15,107 nucleotides of DNA, taken from positions 1-15,107 of the forward strand of contig JBLMXV010000198.1 in the NCBI GenBank assembly GCA_050257935.1. The letters run 5' to 3'. This document shows positions 3,857 through 14,144 of this stretch, one piece after another (within the stretch, counting starts at the first letter, position 1; each line of letters starts with the position of its first letter). A program made the translations under genes and the position numbers. This DNA is from Chloroflexota bacterium (GTDB lineage: Bacteria; Nitrospirota; Thermodesulfovibrionia; Thermodesulfovibrionales; Dissulfurispiraceae). Below the pieces are notes generated by a model that did not search any database, was not told the origin of the DNA, and saw nothing but the letters and a program-made list of their open reading frames with translations.

Positions 3857-3970
3857 CTCACGACATAGGTACCGTCGAAGTGAAATACCCGTCTTCCATT
3901 AGTGCACGGGTGGGCTCACTCCCGTCGGCACAGGTTCGTGCCGTCCTGCGGACCCGCCCTTGAACCCCGG

Positions 3971-5494
3971 ATGCTGAAGCGCTTCTCGGTCTCTGCCGAG
4001 TGTCCCTCCTGCGGGGCTCCCCTCGACTTCAGCGTAGGTTCCAATGCGGTCAGCTGCAGCCATTGCCGCTCCAATCTTCTCATCACAGGGCGGGGCAAGG
4101 TCCTCAGCTACTGCGTGCAACCGCAACTCGACGTGCACCGTGCAGTGGCCAGGGTCATGGTGGCGCCGGTGCGCAGCGGCGTTCGTGTAATAAAACCCCG
4201 ACTCTATTTCATACCCTACCACAATTTCACGGGCTATGAGCTTCGGTGGGAGAGGATAAAGGAGACTCCTGCGGAGTCCATGCTCCACGGTGAAGGCGGT
4301 TCGTGGATGAGTTTGGACCCTGAGGAGTATACAGTGAGGCAGGTGCCGGTTGCGATCGGTGAGATAGTGGAGGCTGCGGGAGAGTTTTTCCGTGCTGTCT
4401 TCAGCAAGGGAAAGAAGGGTGTGCCTGCCGAAGATCCTCCCTGTCCTGCATCCGGGATGCAGACGGCCGCTGAATCCAAGCCTTTCCGTGGCGCGCATGC
4501 CGCAGCAAGTCCCGCTCTGTGCAGGGGTCTGCAACTTCGTGACCGCTATGTGACGAGGAGTTCCCTTGCACTCGACATGGACGGCACGGGCATGTATTCC
4601 CTCGGCGTGAGACCGGGAGTGGTGCGTCTCGAGCTCTTCAGGCGTGACAAGGTTGAGGCGCTCGGGCGTGTCGTGAGGCCCCGCGTATCCGCCGAAACTC
4701 TGATGTCACAGGTCACAGGCATGGAGACAGAACCGGAGTGCCTCTATCGCACGGTCCTTGCAAAGACGCTGTCCCTCATCTATTTTCCGTACTGGGTGGT
4801 GGAATGTGAGTGGAGGCGGGAAAGGTCCCTCACGATCGTCGATGCCGTGTCGGGATCGGTGGTGAGGCGCGACGCGTCCATCACCCTGTTGGAGATCCTC
4901 GACGAGACCGAACAGAGCGCCCCGGCAGTGGTGGGCTTCAGACAATTGATATGCCCGAATTGCGGATGGGATCTCCCCGTGAGGCCTGACGACGTGATCT
5001 TCTTCTGCTCATCGTGCAGGAAGGCGTGGCAGATACGGCAGGAAAACCTGAACGAGACGGCGTACCGCGTGGCGGACGGAGGTGACAGCGATACGAAAAA
5101 GCAGTTCCGCTATCTGCCCCTATGGGAAGTTCCATCCGTTTCAGGGGAAGATTCAGCGGAGACGCTTCCGGTTCCTGCCTGGAGATACCGCCGGCTCAAG
5201 ACACTGGTTGAGCTCGCCGTCAGGCTGTCGGGCCGGCCAATGAGCAACGCCCTGCCGGATACTCTGGTGGGCGATTTCGTAGGGTGCTACTACGACGAAG
5301 ACGATGCCCTTCTCATCGCCCGATTCGTGCGGGCAGCCCACATGGCGAAGACCGCCGAAGACCTTCTGAAAGTTTCCGAAGGCTCCGTGCAGACGGGGCC
5401 GGCATCTCTGACCTGGATCCCCTTAGAGGTGAGAGGAGTCAACCTGATCGAGCCTGTAACAGGGACGAGTCTCTACCGCGACCTCATCTGGTGA
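3971..5494 (+). CDS. Large double zinc-ribbon protein (YdjG-like), ~508 aa from the ATG at 3971
   Basis: N-terminal zinc ribbon (CPSCGAPLDFSVGSNAVSCSHCRSNL) directly after MLKRFSV, and a second one mid-protein (CPNCGWDLPVRPDDVIFFCSSCRKAW). Same strand, 114-nt gap after the SPFH gene. Start is ambiguous: ATG at 3971 has no SD, and a GTG at 3902 is possible. Architecture parallels B. subtilis YdjG. Confidence 0.7.
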   Translation: MLKRFSVSAECPSCGAPLDFSVGSNAVSCSHCRSNLLITGRGKVLSYCVQPQLDVHRAVARVMVAPVRSGVRVIKPRLYFIPYHNFTGYELRWERIKETPAESMLHGEGGSWMSLDPEEYTVRQVPVAIGEIVEAAGEFFRAVFSKGKKGVPAEDPPCPASGMQTAAESKPFRGAHAAASPALCRGLQLRDRYVTRSSLALDMDGTGMYSLGVRPGVVRLELFRRDKVEALGRVVRPRVSAETLMSQVTGMETEPECLYRTVLAKTLSLIYFPYWVVECEWRRERSLTIVDAVSGSVVRRDASITLLEILDETEQSAPAVVGFRQLICPNCGWDLPVRPDDVIFFCSSCRKAWQIRQENLNETAYRVADGGDSDTKKQFRYLPLWEVPSVSGEDSAETLPVPAWRYRRLKTLVELAVRLSGRPMSNALPDTLVGDFVGCYYDEDDALLIARFVRAAHMAKTAEDLLKVSEGSVQTGPASLTWIPLEVRGVNLIEPVTGTSLYRDLIW

Positions 5495-9927: not shown

Positions 9928-10953
9928 TCATCGACGCCGTTGGCTCAGCTCGTGCACGCAGTCCACGAGGGACATTGCGTTGTCGGGCGGCGTCTCCGGG
10001 AGTATGCCGTGGCCGAGATTGAAGATGTGCCCTTTTGCTTCCCCGGCGCCTGAAAGGATCTGTGAAGCCCTCTCCCTGATGAGGTCCCTTGTGCCGAAGA
10101 GGAGGCACGGATCCATATTGCCCTGGACCGCGACATCCTTGCCGAGAGCCTGTACCGCGTCTGCCATGTCGATGCGCCAGTCAAGGCCGAAGACATCAGC
10201 ACCGGCGGTCCTCACCTGTTTCAGCATCGCGCTTCCGTTGAACGCAAAGTATATCACCGGGAGTTTTCCTTTGAATGCAGTGATGATTTTCCGGACCCAC
10301 GGCAAGGCAAGTGTCGTGAAGTCAGCTGGTGAGAGGGCACCAGCCCAGGAGTCGAAGACCTGGATCGCCTGTGCGCCAGCATCCACCTGGGCCTGCAGGT
10401 ACCGTATGACGGTCTCGGTGATCTTGTCCATAAGTTGCGAGAAGAGGGCGGGTCTCCGGTACATCATGCCCTTGGTGTGGATAAAATTCCTCGAGCTGCC
10501 CCCTTCTATCATGTACGTGGCAAGGGTGAAAGGGGCTCCGGAAAAGCCGATCAGCGGCACGGAGAGCCTCTTCACGAGAAGTTTCACTGCCTCGATGACG
10601 AAGGGGACATCCTCCTCGGGGACGATGGACCGCAGGCGGGCCACCGCCGAATCGGTGCGCAACGGGTCATGGAGCACGGGCCCTTTCGATTCCGAGAACT
10701 CTAGTTTCATCCCCATCGGTTCAAGAGGGATGAGGATGTCGGAGAAGAGGATCGCTGCGTCCACTTTAAGGATCTCGACAGGCTGGAGGGTCACCTCAGC
10801 AGCGAGTTCAGGGGTTTTACACAGGGTGAGGAAATCCACCTTCGCCCTCACTTTCTGGTATTCCGGCAGATAGCGTCCCGCCTGTCTCATGATCCAGACG
10901 GGGGTATACGGCGTCTCCTCCCCCCTGCACGCCTTGAGAAAGGTGTCGTTCAT
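9928..10953 (-). CDS. hemE: Uroporphyrinogen decarboxylase
   Basis: From [33 protein letters not shown] the sequence matches the HemE N-terminal signature ([14 protein letters not shown]); 341 aa. The ATG at 10953 overlaps the upstream radical-SAM stop (ATGA). The ORF-track 524-aa version includes a spurious upstream in-frame extension. Confidence 0.9.
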
Positions 10954-12029
10954 TTCGCCGCCGCCTCCTTCCTCTTCAGCCTCGCAGGCTTGTAGGTGCA
11001 GAAGGGCTCCTCTTCGAGGTAGTCGCCATGGACCGAGTAAGCCCGCGCTCTGCAGCCTCCGCAGACATTCACGAATTCGCAGGAACCGCACCTCCCCTTG
11101 TATTTGGAGAAGTCCCTCAGTTCCTTGAAGAGATCGGAGTGTTCCCATATGTCTTTGAATGACCGTTCCCGGACGTTCCCTGCGGAACGGGGGAAATAGC
11201 TGCAGGGCAGGACGTTGCCGTCCACGTCGATGAGGCATATCACCTGTCCGGCGATACATCCCTTTGAACCGCCCGTGGAGAACTTCAGGGTGCGCCTCTT
11301 GAACATACTGCCCTCTTCCTTTGCCTTCTGGAGGACTATGCGGTAGTAATGAGGCGCGCAGGTGGGCCTCACGAGCAGGTCGTCTTCCCCCTTCTCCATC
11401 TGGTAATGCCAGTCCAATATGTCTTCGTAATCCTCCTTCGAAATGAGCTCGCTCATGATCTCTTCCCCTCTGCCGGTGGGCACGATCATGAACATGTACC
11501 ACGCCGTGGCGCCGATTTCTTTCGCGAGCCTGTAAACCTTCTGGATCTCTTCCTGGTTCCTCTTGGTGAATGACGAGTTGATGATGAACTCGATGCCATG
11601 GTCTCTGAAGAGCCGGGCGGCCCGCAGGGTGCCCTCGAAGGCGCCTTTCTGGTTCCTGAAATTGTCATGCACCTCGGCGGTCGAACCGTCGAGGCTGAGA
11701 GAGACGATCCTGATGCCTGACTCGCGTATCTTCGCGCATGTGTCCTCCGTCACGAGGGTCCCGTTCGTGGCGAGGCACATGCGAAGGCCTTTTTCCGTGC
11801 CGTAGCGGGCTATGTCGAACACGTCCGCCCTCAGGAGGGGCTCACCGCCGCTGAGGACGATCACCGGAGTCGCATAGCTCGCAATGTCGTCGAGGATGCG
11901 GAACGCCTCATCAATGCTCAAGTCGGGGTGCTCGCTCACCACCATCTCGGATGAAGAGCGGCAGTGCACGCACTTGAGGTTACATCGTCTCGTGATCTCC
12001 CATGCGATCCATCGTGGTATACATTCCAT
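10950..12029 (-). CDS. Radical SAM / SPASM-domain enzyme of the AhbC/AhbD/NirJ family (candidate anaerobic heme synthase)
   Basis: N-terminal [14 protein letters not shown] (CxxxCxxC radical-SAM cluster motif in the NirJ/Ahb-type WxLTxxCNLxCxHC context) and a C-terminal Cys-rich SPASM region ([18 protein letters not shown]); 359 aa. Translationally coupled to hemE. Confidence 0.85.
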
Positions 12030-12144
12030 TGTGTTCGACCTTCACGTATTTATTTGTTCCCAAGATCCAGTGGTACGCGTGCGGTAAGGAGACGCCGTCT
12101 CGCGCTCCGGCAGCACTCTGCCGCCGTTCTACGGCTCACTTCGC

Positions 12145-12188
12145 TGCAGCCGCTGAACTCACCCTTCGGGTTCAGACACCAGCGGCTG
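12145..12188. repeat. 44-nt nested GC-rich palindrome (GCAGCCGCTG-N24-CAGCGGCTGC, with inner CTGAAC...GTTCAG and a cUUCGg-like apex)
   Basis: Read directly from the sequence: perfect 10-bp outer arms, a 6-bp inner pair and a UUCG-type loop. It lies in the 366-nt non-coding gap between hflX and the radical-SAM gene. A further hairpin, CGGCAG-cact-CTGCCG, lies at 12108-12123. Confidence 0.5.
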
Positions 12189-12204
12189 CGGCCGCTCCGT
12201 TTCG

Positions 12205-12252
12205 CCAAGAACGATAACGGGGACTACCGAAGTCGCTCGATCCGGCATCCCC
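12205..12252 (-). terminator. Candidate intrinsic terminator downstream of hflX (GGGGAUGCCG...CGGUAGUCCCC stem followed by GUUAUCGUUCUU)
   Basis: On the minus strand, an imperfect ~10-bp GC-rich stem with a 13-nt loop is followed by a moderately U-rich tract, ~145 nt past the hflX stop. The U-run is interrupted, so this is weak. Confidence 0.3.
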
Positions 12253-12395
12253 TTACGGCTGGATTCGGGTTGTATTAAGTGTACCACAGAGCCGCTGCTG
12301 AGTGGAAAGGGCATAGCTGGGATTATTCAGGTAGTTGCGGCAGCATCAGAGCAGAGGGTTCGAGAGCGAGAGTGCCGGTGTCAGCGACAGACGAC

Positions 12396-14144
12396 TCAGT
12401 CGCCGCTTGCTGCCAATTCGGGGGTCTGGTGGTTCCTGGAGTCCCAGAGGTGATGTTCGATCGCCCCGAGAAGAGCACTGAAGGTGCGCGGGTCCATGGC
12501 CGACACTGCAACTGCCTCGTGCCTTGCAGTGAGATAGGATGCCTCTTGGGGCGTGACCAGGTCAGCCTTGTTGAATACGAGTATTCTCGGTGTTCCGAGG
12601 AGGTTCAGGTCGTTAAGTATGGTCTCCACCGAGGCGATGTGCTGCTCGAAGCGGGGGTTCGCGATGTCGATGATGTGGAGCAGCAGATCGGCGTCCTCCA
12701 GTTCCTCGAGTGTTGCCTTGAACGCGGCAATAAGGTCACGGGGGAGGTCCCTGATGAACCCGACGGTGTCGGTGACGATCACCTCGCGTTCCTTGGGAAA
12801 ACGCAGTCTCCTGCTTGCAGTGTCAAGGGTCGCGAACATCTTGTCCTCTACGAAGGTGGTGCTCTTGGTGAGAGCATTCAGGAGGGTCGACTTGCCGGCG
12901 TTTGTGTAGCCGATGATCGACACGATCGGTATCCCTGTGGAGACACGCCTGTGCTTCCTCTGCCTCCTCGCCTCGCTCAAGACCTGCAGTTCGCGCTCGA
13001 GGTGCGCTATCCTGTCGCGGATGCGGCGGCGGTCGATCTCGAGCTTCATCTCGCCTGGTCCCCTTCCGCCGATTCCTCCCATAAGCCGCGACATCGCGGT
13101 CCCTTTGCCCGTGAGCCTGGGCAGCGTATATTTGAGCTGCGCGAGCTCCACCTGGACTTTGCCGTCACGGCTGTGAGCTCTCCTCGCGAAAATGTCGAGT
13201 ATGAGCTGGGACCGGTCTATTACCTTCAGTTCCGTCGATTCTGCGATGGCCCGCATCTGTGAAGGGGTGAGGTCCTGGTCGAAGATGAGGAGAGTCGCAC
13301 CTTTATCGAAGGCGTCGATCACAAGCTCCTTGAGTTTGCCCTCTCCCAGGAGGTGCGTGGGGTTCACCTCTTTGAGTCGCTGAATGACGGTGCCCAGCAC
13401 GGTGACATCACTGGACATCGCGAGCTCTTTCAGTTCCTCCATTGAATCCTCAAGGAATGGCTTCGGCTTGGTCGATGCGCTCACAAGGAGCGCCCTTTCC
13501 CTCCCGTCGTTGCGATCGAAAACCCTGTGCCTGTCCATCTCCTCTTCCAGGGATTCGATGAATTGCCGAAAATTGAAGTCTAGCTGGTAGAAGTCTGAGG
13601 AGATGAGATCGTACCTTCTTTGGGAACCGTATGGCATCAGATGTGCAAGGTGAATTGTGTGGGGGAGGCCGTCGCGGATTGTGATCGCGGCGATGAGATC
13701 GAACCTGAGGAGCGAGAGATCCGTGATGTCTTCATCATTCAGCGGTTCACTGCGAAGGTGAGTGTGGACGAATCTGAGGCCGCGCAGAGGCTTACGTCCG
13801 AGTGGATAGTCATCCAGAGCGGGAATGAGAAGGCCTTTCGCATCGCCGAGGATCACATGGGTGATGACACCTTCGCGCGAGATGAGTACACCTAACTGCT
13901 TTCCGGTCTGTGAGGACAGTTCGGTCAGATAGCGAGCGAGATCATGGGATATCACCCTGTCCGTGGGAGTGCGTCTCCGGTAGATACGCTCCAACGCTTG
14001 GACAGCAGTCTTCTTCAGCCCCGCTATGTGTCCGTGGACAGTCTTTATCGAACTCTCCTTACACGATATTCTAGCAGAAGGAAAATTATCTTGACAATCA
14101 ACGATGATCTGAAATTTAATAGCCTGACGGCCGACGCGGCGCAA
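12396..14144 (-). CDS. hflX: GTPase HflX carrying an N-terminal extension of unresolved length (~140-215 aa); start codon uncertain
   Basis: The canonical HflX core begins at ...RERALLVSAS and includes LILDIFARRA, KVQVELAQLKYTLPRL, GGIGGRGPGEMKLE, the G1 motif GYTNAGKSTLLNAL and DTVGF. The ORF-track start is a TTG at 14144, but a promoter-like AT-rich region and an AAGGAGAG SD (14054-14061) lie inside that 5' end, so the real start is probably further downstream. Confidence 0.8.
   Translation of the reverse strand: MRRVGRQAIKFQIIVDCQDNFPSARISCKESSIKTVHGHIAGLKKTAVQALERIYRRRTPTDRVISHDLARYLTELSSQTGKQLGVLISREGVITHVILGDAKGLLIPALDDYPLGRKPLRGLRFVHTHLRSEPLNDEDITDLSLLRFDLIAAITIRDGLPHTIHLAHLMPYGSQRRYDLISSDFYQLDFNFRQFIESLEEEMDRHRVFDRNDGRERALLVSASTKPKPFLEDSMEELKELAMSSDVTVLGTVIQRLKEVNPTHLLGEGKLKELVIDAFDKGATLLIFDQDLTPSQMRAIAESTELKVIDRSQLILDIFARRAHSRDGKVQVELAQLKYTLPRLTGKGTAMSRLMGGIGGRGPGEMKLEIDRRRIRDRIAHLERELQVLSEARRQRKHRRVSTGIPIVSIIGYTNAGKSTLLNALTKSTTFVEDKMFATLDTASRRLRFPKEREVIVTDTVGFIRDLPRDLIAAFKATLEELEDADLLLHIIDIANPRFEQHIASVETILNDLNLLGTPRILVFNKADLVTPQEASYLTARHEAVAVSAMDPRTFSALLGAIEHHLWDSRNHQTPELAASGD
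14068..14097 (-). promoter_or_regulatory. Candidate sigma70 promoter for hflX (-35 TTGTCA, 18-nt spacer, -10 TAGAAT)
   Basis: On the minus strand, TTGTCA (plus coordinates 14092-14097) and TAGAAT (14068-14073) lie in the AT-rich divergent region, followed by an AAGGAGAG SD. Confidence 0.3.
14091..14120 (+). promoter_or_regulatory. Candidate sigma70 promoter for the small gene at 14225 (-35 TTGACA, 18-nt spacer, -10 TTTAAT)
   Basis: Perfect TTGACA at 14091-14096 and TTTAAT at 14115-14120, in the AT-rich divergent intergenic region ~100 nt upstream of the ATG. Confidence 0.35.

Follow-up and report, generated by a model that had tools for sequence, protein, structure and literature searches.

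Is the unusually structured gap upstream of a heme synthesis gene a regulatory leader, or does it hold something that arrived there by another route? The question is raised by contig JBLMXV010000198.1 of assembly GCA_050257935.1 (15,107 nucleotides (nt); this whole stretch is called the window). A gap of 366 nt, 12395-12030, separates the stop codon of hflX (12396) from the ATG (12029) of an ahbD-like radical-SAM/SPASM gene that is followed by hemE, and all genes around it lie on the minus strand. A preliminary description proposed a GC-rich, riboswitch-like or attenuator leader with mutually exclusive helices. Here we describe minus-strand positions 12270 to 12058 as what is probably a copy of a palindromic insertion of about 185-215 nt that is non-autonomous, dispersed and low in copy number, with likeness both to miniature inverted-repeat transposable elements (MITEs) and to ERIC sequences. 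The palindromes are real, and the element family is uncatalogued in Rfam 15.

The boundaries of the non-coding gap had been drawn correctly. Its two short minus-strand open reading frames (ORFs) have no Pfam match and family indels disrupt every reading frame (judged by eye), so a coding reading of the element was dropped. All of the inverted repeats listed in the preliminary description are present. One of 13 nt with one mismatch (12143-12155 / 12180-12192) has a perfect 10-bp core (12146-12155 / 12180-12189); among 500 dinucleotide-shuffled versions of the gap, 1 contained a perfect inverted repeat of this length. The others include CTGAAC/GTTCAG at 12153-12158 / 12170-12175, CGGCAG/CTGCCG at 12108-12113 / 12118-12123, and AGCGGC/GCCGCT at 12181-12186 / 12191-12196. 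The nested palindrome does have the outer and inner arms ascribed to it, but 3 nt of the inner CTGAAC arm also belong to the outer arm. The UUCG apex is read on the plus strand, antisense to the strand that the family conserves. The gap as a whole is not GC-rich (58.7% compared to 57.2% for the window); only the element is richer (63.8%).

Folded in full, the gap is no more stable than expected (z -1.2 and -1.0). The fold signal lies entirely within 12056-12272, the minus strand of which forms a single rod with a minimum free energy of -109.8 kcal/mol (z -5.46, matched by 0 of 200 shuffles). This fold places the full palindromic element, one long imperfect hairpin of approximately 213 nt, at 12058-12270 on the minus strand. 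Read from the sequence, its outer helix joins 12269-12259 (CCCGAAUCCAG) to 12070-12059 (CUGGAUCUUGGG). The rest of the gap on that strand, from the hflX stop to the element (12271-12395), is unstructured ancestral intergenic spacer; z is +0.64 for 12271-12398. The window gap contains no terminator-like or promoter-like site, and a tRNA/tmRNA scan was negative. No RNA family in Rfam 15 matches, in line with the preliminary description, which could name none by eye. At the gathering thresholds of Rfam 15 there were 0 matches in the window and 20 homologue loci, and in E-value mode the window and homologues gave spurious miRNA and snoRNA fragments only, with nothing real across the window and 25 homologue loci.

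Homologues were collected with one exact conserved 18-mer over metagenome contigs, which returned at least 120 stretches with about 95 true homologues among the matches listed; individual loci are cited below by their L numbers. A covariance model (R1) was seeded with 20 metagenome copies that excluded the window. It matches the window at full length on the minus strand (12260-12080, model positions 1-183) with 122.8 bits and an E-value of 2e-27, and a more general covariance model (R2) gives this core 147 bits. When 66 copies are aligned to the model, 92.6% of the pair cells are paired, compared to 70.7% with partners shuffled and about 40% with partners slid. Changes on both sides occur at 48 of 55 pairs (789 cells), and 0 of 500 shuffles reach the observed values. 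This alignment was fitted to the model; RNAalifold returned the same helices from an independent MAFFT alignment. The covariation analysis that had been suggested for homologues bears out that the strand of the neighbouring genes carries an element of conserved structure, and to this extent the candidate structured RNA of the preliminary description stands, while its riboswitch-like or attenuator leader does not.

The conserved residues sit in the internal loops and the apex rather than in the stems, which vary freely with compensation. The most conserved block is the apical hairpin GUGUCUGAACCCGAAGGGUGAGUUC at 12155-12178 (all parts given here are on the minus strand), in which UGA and GAG flank ACCC-GAA-GGGU. 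It is invariant in alignments A2 and A6, partly because it was used as the search pattern, and the paralogue L130_b carries a compensatory GGCC/GGCC version. Beneath it the 5' strand of the apical stem (GCAGCCGCUG, 12180-12189) pairs with 12146-12155 as a perfect 10-bp palindrome. This stem (helix 10) shows double changes at 9 of 9 pairs and has 97.3% of its cells paired. The 5' arm of the inner purine loop, GGCGAAACGGAGCGG at 12192-12206 (family consensus GCGAAAUGGAGCG), was placed by the model match, and short helices 7-9 within it covary; the 3' arm, CAGCGAAGUGAGCC at 12133-12146 (consensus AGCGAAAUGAGC), repeats the motif of the 5' arm on the same strand. The window copy has AC/GU in this loop in place of AU/AU, a compensatory change. 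The outer purine loop, placed by model match and consensus, consists of UCGAGCGACUU at 12230-12240 (consensus uugAGcGanuu) and GGAGCGCGAG at 12099-12108 (consensus gAgCGaaag).

The outer loop thus sets UGAGCGA opposite GAGCGAA, the inner loop has GCGAAAUG(G)AGC on both arms, and the apex has UGA...GAG around ACCC-GAA-GGGU. The purine motif, GAGCGA or GCGAAAUGAGC, is repeated on both arms of one strand. Read antiparallel, the loops would form tandem G.A/A.G steps between the short covarying Watson-Crick steps of helices 7-9, a pairing proposed here from the base sequence. Of 79 copies, 78 fold more stably in the window-minus orientation, with a mean difference of 12.4 kcal/mol, and G.U combinations (228 cells) far outnumber A.C (77 cells). 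Because the same motif occupies both arms of the same strand and G.U greatly exceeds A.C, the constraint acts on one single strand, as RNA or single-stranded DNA (ssDNA). The window copy has a GC content of 64% compared to 38-56% elsewhere in the family and keeps the fold and all motifs. The helices that had been taken as mutually exclusive (AGCGGC/GCCGCT, CGGCAG/CTGCCG and GGGGA/UCCCC) exist in this GC-rich copy alone; the consensus of the family does not permit them.

Variants of the structure also occur. Short core-only versions at L121/L145, L140:1325-1455, L101:1569-1652 and L084:4115-4190 cover model positions of about 28-161 or 51-134 and lack the outer helices. An extra small GC-rich hairpin in or beside the apical stem of L093, L105, L109/L172, L179, L183, L193 and L196 resembles a secondary insertion of a short palindrome. 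Diverged paralogues share a contig in L201 (5961-6139 and 7535-7719, 1.4 kb apart on the same strand) and in L130 (1298-1486 and 1589-1772), where they stand back to back in divergent orientation, 106 nt apart.

Several observations indicate that the copies moved. Copies that are 90-96% identical have flanks with no similarity. L151, L157 and L158 come from one sample, have a GC content of 45.9-46.9% and tetranucleotide correlations of 0.81-0.87, and carry the element in different contexts. Near-identical copies with unrelated flanks and matching profiles were likewise found within samples for L118/L142/L148 (r 0.89-0.97) and for L087/L097. L151, L161, L175 and L167 join two left flanks to two right ones in all four possible ways, which is the expectation for a repeat present at least twice per genome. 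The same junction of an ABC ATPase and permease holds the element in opposite orientations in L106 (1469-1650) and L190 (2658-2841). In L190 the hexamer ATGGGA stands on both sides of the element, and the ATPase stop codon lies between repeat and rod.

The outermost ends are conserved inverted repeats in many subfamilies (TTATCCYAAA... and ...TTTRGGATAA; in the window ACCCGAAUCCAG and CUGGAUCUUGGG). At fixed offsets, 15 of 63 copies are bordered by AT-rich direct repeats 5 nt or longer, compared to a permutation mean of 4.7, and 0 of 1000 permutations reach 15, with the qualification that the offset window was chosen after inspecting the data. The repeats are 5-8 nt in length, for example ATAAT, ATCATAC, ATAAAC and TATAATTT. 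In the window AATAC, read from the sequence at 12272-12276 and 12046-12050 on the minus strand, is a candidate target-site duplication, with its copies at unequal distances from the rod. Of the features of a MITE, the family has conserved terminal inverted repeats and more than one copy per genome at unrelated sites, with presence/absence polymorphism.

The history of the hflX-ahbD site agrees with insertion. In L205, a relative with a 98% identical AhbD, the element occupies the same site in the same orientation (133.8 bits). No match to the element is present in the fully syntenic L206-208 (AhbD 86%), where the gap is 113 nt, or in L209-210 (84%), where it is 52 nt, and the gap is shorter than 100 nt in most of about 45 further relatives. 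The element is missing from these 52-113-nt gaps before ahbD, and among the ahbD leaders examined L205 alone shares it. When the gap was compared by blastn with 80 related ahbD loci, the single match was in L064; there the element stands at the end of the contig in opposite orientation, 2.5 kb away from ahbD, with the conserved blocks and compensatory changes in the 10-bp stem. The 113-nt gap of L206 shares CTCTGTG-TACACTTAA with the window at approximately 12290-12275 (by eye), the 3' end of the spacer (CTCTGTGGTACACTTAA), and from this the insertion point is set at about 35 nt before the ahbD ATG. In L205 the apical hairpin is disrupted (GAAUUGG), which hints at weak constraint at this site.

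The hflX-ahbD intergenic site is a hotspot for palindromic insertions. A different shared palindrome, rod-like and of about 170 nt (GGCAGAYATGCTRAAAAAYCCC ... CACATCTGCC), occupies this gap in L003 (2941-3348) and L015 (3690-4001). It is not matched by R1 or R2, and in L003 a further palindrome is nested inside. Small REP/MITE-like palindromes (e.g. CTGTCATTCCAGCTTGTCTGGAATC...) are found in the same gap of L010 (1848-2035) and L029 (1844-2045).

Across about 80 copies the element is not tied to any gene; its neighbours are unrelated and its orientation is random. The largest cluster of neighbouring genes has 6 members among about 300 flanking ORFs, and the flanking ORFs of about 80 loci include no conserved neighbour or partner gene and no transposase. 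Upstream neighbours are on the same strand in 33 cases and on the opposite strand in 36, downstream neighbours in 25 and 41, and of the copies between co-directional genes 14 are sense and 20 antisense. The median distance to neighbours is 19-68 nt. Sigma70-like promoters upstream of the copies show no excess over the control. In L106 the two ABC genes around the element were identified as ATPase and membrane partner by Pfam, and elsewhere the element separates an ABC permease from a binding-protein-like gene. Heme genes do occur among the neighbours. In L164 (5537-5720) and its related contig L184 the element lies antisense between hemA and hemC (in L164 glutamyl-tRNA reductase and porphobilinogen deaminase by Pfam), in L133 (10302-10431) it adjoins hemE, and in L168 it is 2.3 kb from hemA. 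With the window included this makes about 4 independent neighbourhoods in about 90 loci, which is near or only slightly above chance.

These data dispose of a riboswitch or transcription attenuator of the ahbD/hemE operon, which has hardly any probability left. What speaks for it is the location upstream of ahbD on the coding strand, the strong and partly overlapping helices, and the few copies near heme genes (L133 with hemE, L164/L184 with hemA-hemC, and L168). The leader reading is refuted because the element is dispersed at many unrelated sites in either orientation and is absent from the gaps of syntenic relatives; the preliminary description had itself named a REP-type repeat at many other genomic sites as an outcome incompatible with its proposal, and the family is a repeat of this dispersed kind. 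Among the related ahbD loci examined (80 genome contigs and L205-L210) the same leader is without the element in all except L205. The family has no gene association and random orientation, with the L164 copy antisense to hemA and hemC. There is no terminator or U-tract, the Shine-Dalgarno sequence is outside the rod, and no expression platform is apparent. The alternative helices are specific to the window and not conserved, the supposed loops are paired or purine-mismatched along a continuous rod with no open ligand pocket, and heme-gene proximity, at about 4 of 90 loci, is about what chance gives. A divergent 6S-type RNA, that is, an open-promoter mimic binding RNA polymerase, is also very improbable. 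The size (about 185-215 nt), the rod shape and the occasional paralogues are similar. However, no Rfam 6S match (RF00013) is obtained at E<=10 on 651 nt or at E<=5 on the homologues, the region that would be the central bubble is paired by covarying helices 7-9 and symmetric G.A mismatches, and there are several copies per genome, located in operons and in both orientations. Searches of the literature gave nothing relevant on 6S RNA in this clade or on conserved 16-mers of the element.

A more serious rival is a multi-copy family of genes for a trans-acting structured RNA, whose rod would bind or sequester a dimeric protein or scaffold a ribonucleoprotein and whose copies would have spread by duplication or by hitch-hiking on mobile elements. 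Covarying stems with conserved loops and apex are the classic signature of a functional RNA, and purine motifs on both arms of the same strand can matter only in a single strand. Diverged paralogues in one contig both retain the fold, L130_b compensates in its apical stem, and the GC-ameliorated window copy retains all motifs. A T-run directly follows the closing stem in 23 of 74 copies, but because an A-run mirrors it at the other end it is part of the terminal inverted repeat. The promoter signal is not above the control, many copies in operons are 10-25 nt from both neighbours, which leaves no room for a dedicated promoter, and these are antisense as often as sense. The flanking direct repeats and empty sites point to insertion events, and we consider such a gene family unlikely. 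A stand-alone small RNA gene with -10 boxes and T-runs was rejected, as its promoter score equals that of the control and the TATAAT-like boxes are present on both sides as direct or terminal repeats. A further alternative is a cis element co-opted by the host at this locus, where the hairpin may set the ratio of hflX to ahbD/hemE through 3'-end protection, processing or translational uncoupling, like enterobacterial REP/BIME and ERIC copies. In favour of this, the element is sense between co-directional genes that abut or nearly do so in relatives, is kept at the same site in the 98% relative L205, and elsewhere lies at ABC binding-protein/permease or ATPase/permease junctions, a classic setting for differential expression. 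The family is antisense to operons as often as sense, yet keeps its sense-strand motifs, so the conserved features are not explained by a role in host mRNA. In L205 the disrupted apical hairpin (GAAUUGG) suggests relaxed constraint at this site, and overall we judge the cis role quite improbable.

The palindromic insertion remains the probable explanation, and there are points that weigh against it too. Direct repeats accompany only about one fourth of the copies, and the AATAC repeat of the window copy is asymmetric about the rod. No transposase or autonomous partner was found beside any copy in the flanking ORFs of about 80 loci. Copy number per genome appears low, with 3 extra copies in about 0.5 Mb of loci (L201, L130 and L140) and 1 match in 0.62 Mb of related genomes. 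Stems that vary with compensation around conserved purine loops and apex are unlike the textbook MITE. The retention of the fold by diverged paralogues and by the GC-ameliorated window copy points to purifying selection on single copies and a function for the single-stranded form. A run of R2 over 1.1 Mb of loci gave no diverged copies beyond the three already found in L201, L130 and L140, and family members are absent from the plasmid, phage and IMG/VR collections searched.

The insertion can be compared with known systems. ERIC/IRU elements are imperfect palindromes in short intergenic regions within transcription units and occur in either orientation. The element shares with ERIC/IRU and YPAL the imperfect palindrome of 100-200 nt, the intergenic position in transcription units, the two orientations and a low to moderate copy number, as well as a suggested constraint on the folded single strand and insertion polymorphism between relatives. 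It differs from ERIC/IRU in being longer and in its hosts, uncultured Nitrospirota-type anaerobes in place of enterobacteria or Vibrio, and the likeness drawn here is one of architecture. It is also strongly polar: one strand bears identical purine motifs on its two arms, and the stems are freely compensated. With MITEs such as the Correia elements (CREE) of Neisseria it shares the non-autonomous character, the conserved terminal inverted repeats, the short AT-rich direct repeats, the insertion between operon genes and the formation of a hairpin by the whole element when transcribed. Unlike CREE, no parent insertion sequence or transposase was found, the direct repeats occur in about 25% of copies and are 5-8 nt, the interior and not just the ends is most conserved, and the copy number appears low.

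REP/REPIN-RAYT systems are similar as hairpin-forming, strand-specific intergenic repeats in which the single-stranded fold matters and which, as is proposed for the element, are mobilised in trans, there by RAYT (HUH) transposases. The known repeats are shorter (REP 20-40 nt, REPIN about 70-110 nt); they carry a 5' GTAG signature, are built as Watson-Crick symmetric inverted doublets and make no target duplication, whereas the element is a single rod of about 200 nt with GAGCGA on the same strand of both arms; no RAYT-like gene was seen among the neighbours of about 80 loci. 6S RNA and Ms1 are alike in length, in the extended helix broken by internal loops and in helix covariation, but the family lacks an open central bubble and an Rfam match, is multi-copy, and has no fixed context or promoter. 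Riboswitch and attenuator leaders are similar at this locus only, in being upstream of a biosynthetic operon on the coding strand; the family differs in having no conserved gene association, no expression platform and an orientation-independent distribution.

The proposed history is that the element entered an ancestral hflX-ahbD spacer of about 110-130 nt, approximately 35 nt upstream of the ahbD start, presumably in the common ancestor of the window genome and its 98%-identical relative. Mobilisation may have occurred in trans by a putative enzyme that recognises the rod and its symmetric tandem G.A loops in single-stranded form (RNA or ssDNA), and such recognition would explain the conservation of the fold over the stem sequence. 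In its sense orientation inside the hflX-ahbD-hemE unit the element is predicted to give a transcript hairpin of about -110 kcal/mol with no U-tract. The rod would end 29 nt before the ATG and leave the Shine-Dalgarno sequence (12043-12039) free. If the operon is affected, the effect would be of the ligand-independent sort common to large hairpins between cistrons, plausibly a 3' exonuclease barrier protecting the upstream mRNA 3' end, an RNase III/E processing site, or an uncoupling of hflX from the heme genes.

A bolder interpretation, possible if doubtful, is that the element represents a mobile gene encoding structured RNA of a new class, defined by a rod of about 200 nt, two-fold symmetric tandem-G.A loops (GAGCGA on GAGCGA and GCGAAAUGAGC on itself) and an invariant triloop hairpin flanked by UGA and GAG. 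That the sense RNA is itself functional we regard with about equal, perhaps slightly greater, doubt. If the element is such a gene, its sense RNA might present a dimeric RNA-binding protein with a multivalent decoy or scaffold, or be the recognised intermediate of an undescribed RNA- or ssDNA-guided mobility mechanism, and the spread through Nitrospirota-type and other anaerobes would reflect selection on the RNA. For annotation, the 366-nt "leader" should not be counted among the RNAs that regulate anaerobic heme synthesis, and the same caution applies to the many similar gaps in Nitrospirota-type metagenome-assembled genomes (MAGs) that hold other palindromic insertions. More than 100 diverged copies with near-perfect compensatory pairing, strand polarity and symmetric tandem-G.A loops are unusual for a MITE and absent from Rfam 15. 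The family is thus a tractable case of what selection keeps in palindromic intergenic repeats, be it mobility, an RNA product or operon tuning, and the covariance model is ready to run on complete genomes.

The genes around the gap read, in order, an HD-domain gene, hflX, the gap, the radical-SAM/SPASM gene, hemE, purN, rsmD, coaD, an isochorismatase-family gene and rpsA. On the minus strand, hflX (12396-14144) encodes a GTPase HflX with an N-terminal extension, identified by Pfam and by NCBIfam TIGR03156 (442.6 bits, cutoff 216.75). Its 582-aa product has about 215 aa before the TIGR03156 region (residues 217-565), an extension kept in relatives. The downstream gene (10950-12029, minus), supported by Pfam, encodes a heme b synthase-like protein that is closest to AhbD, yet its TIGR04545 score of 448 bits is short of the family cutoff of 500. 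A Shine-Dalgarno-like GAAGG, read from the sequence on the minus strand (12039-12043), lies outside the rod and 9 nt upstream of the ATG at 12029. hemE (approximately 9928-10953, minus) passes the NCBIfam equivalog cutoff of TIGR01464.

The nearest genomes are Nitrospirota/Thermodesulfovibrionia MAGs with AhbD identity up to 82%, among which hflX-ahbD-hemE synteny is widespread. The NCBI record of the AhbD protein labels the window contig as "Chloroflexota bacterium". Since gene order and identities match Nitrospirota/Thermodesulfovibrionia, this label is probably a binning error. Elsewhere in the window, the plus-strand ORFs 2195-2680 (161 aa) and 3902-5494 (530 aa) have no significant Pfam family, the longer one giving weak zinc-ribbon matches; both adjoin an SPFH/zinc-ribbon protein, and the arrangement is kept in L205. 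In the window lineage ahbD and hemE overlap by 4 nt, and insertions of 300-550 nt lie between these two genes in the relatives L003, L005, L015, L019, L034, L038, L043, L045, L053 and L056.

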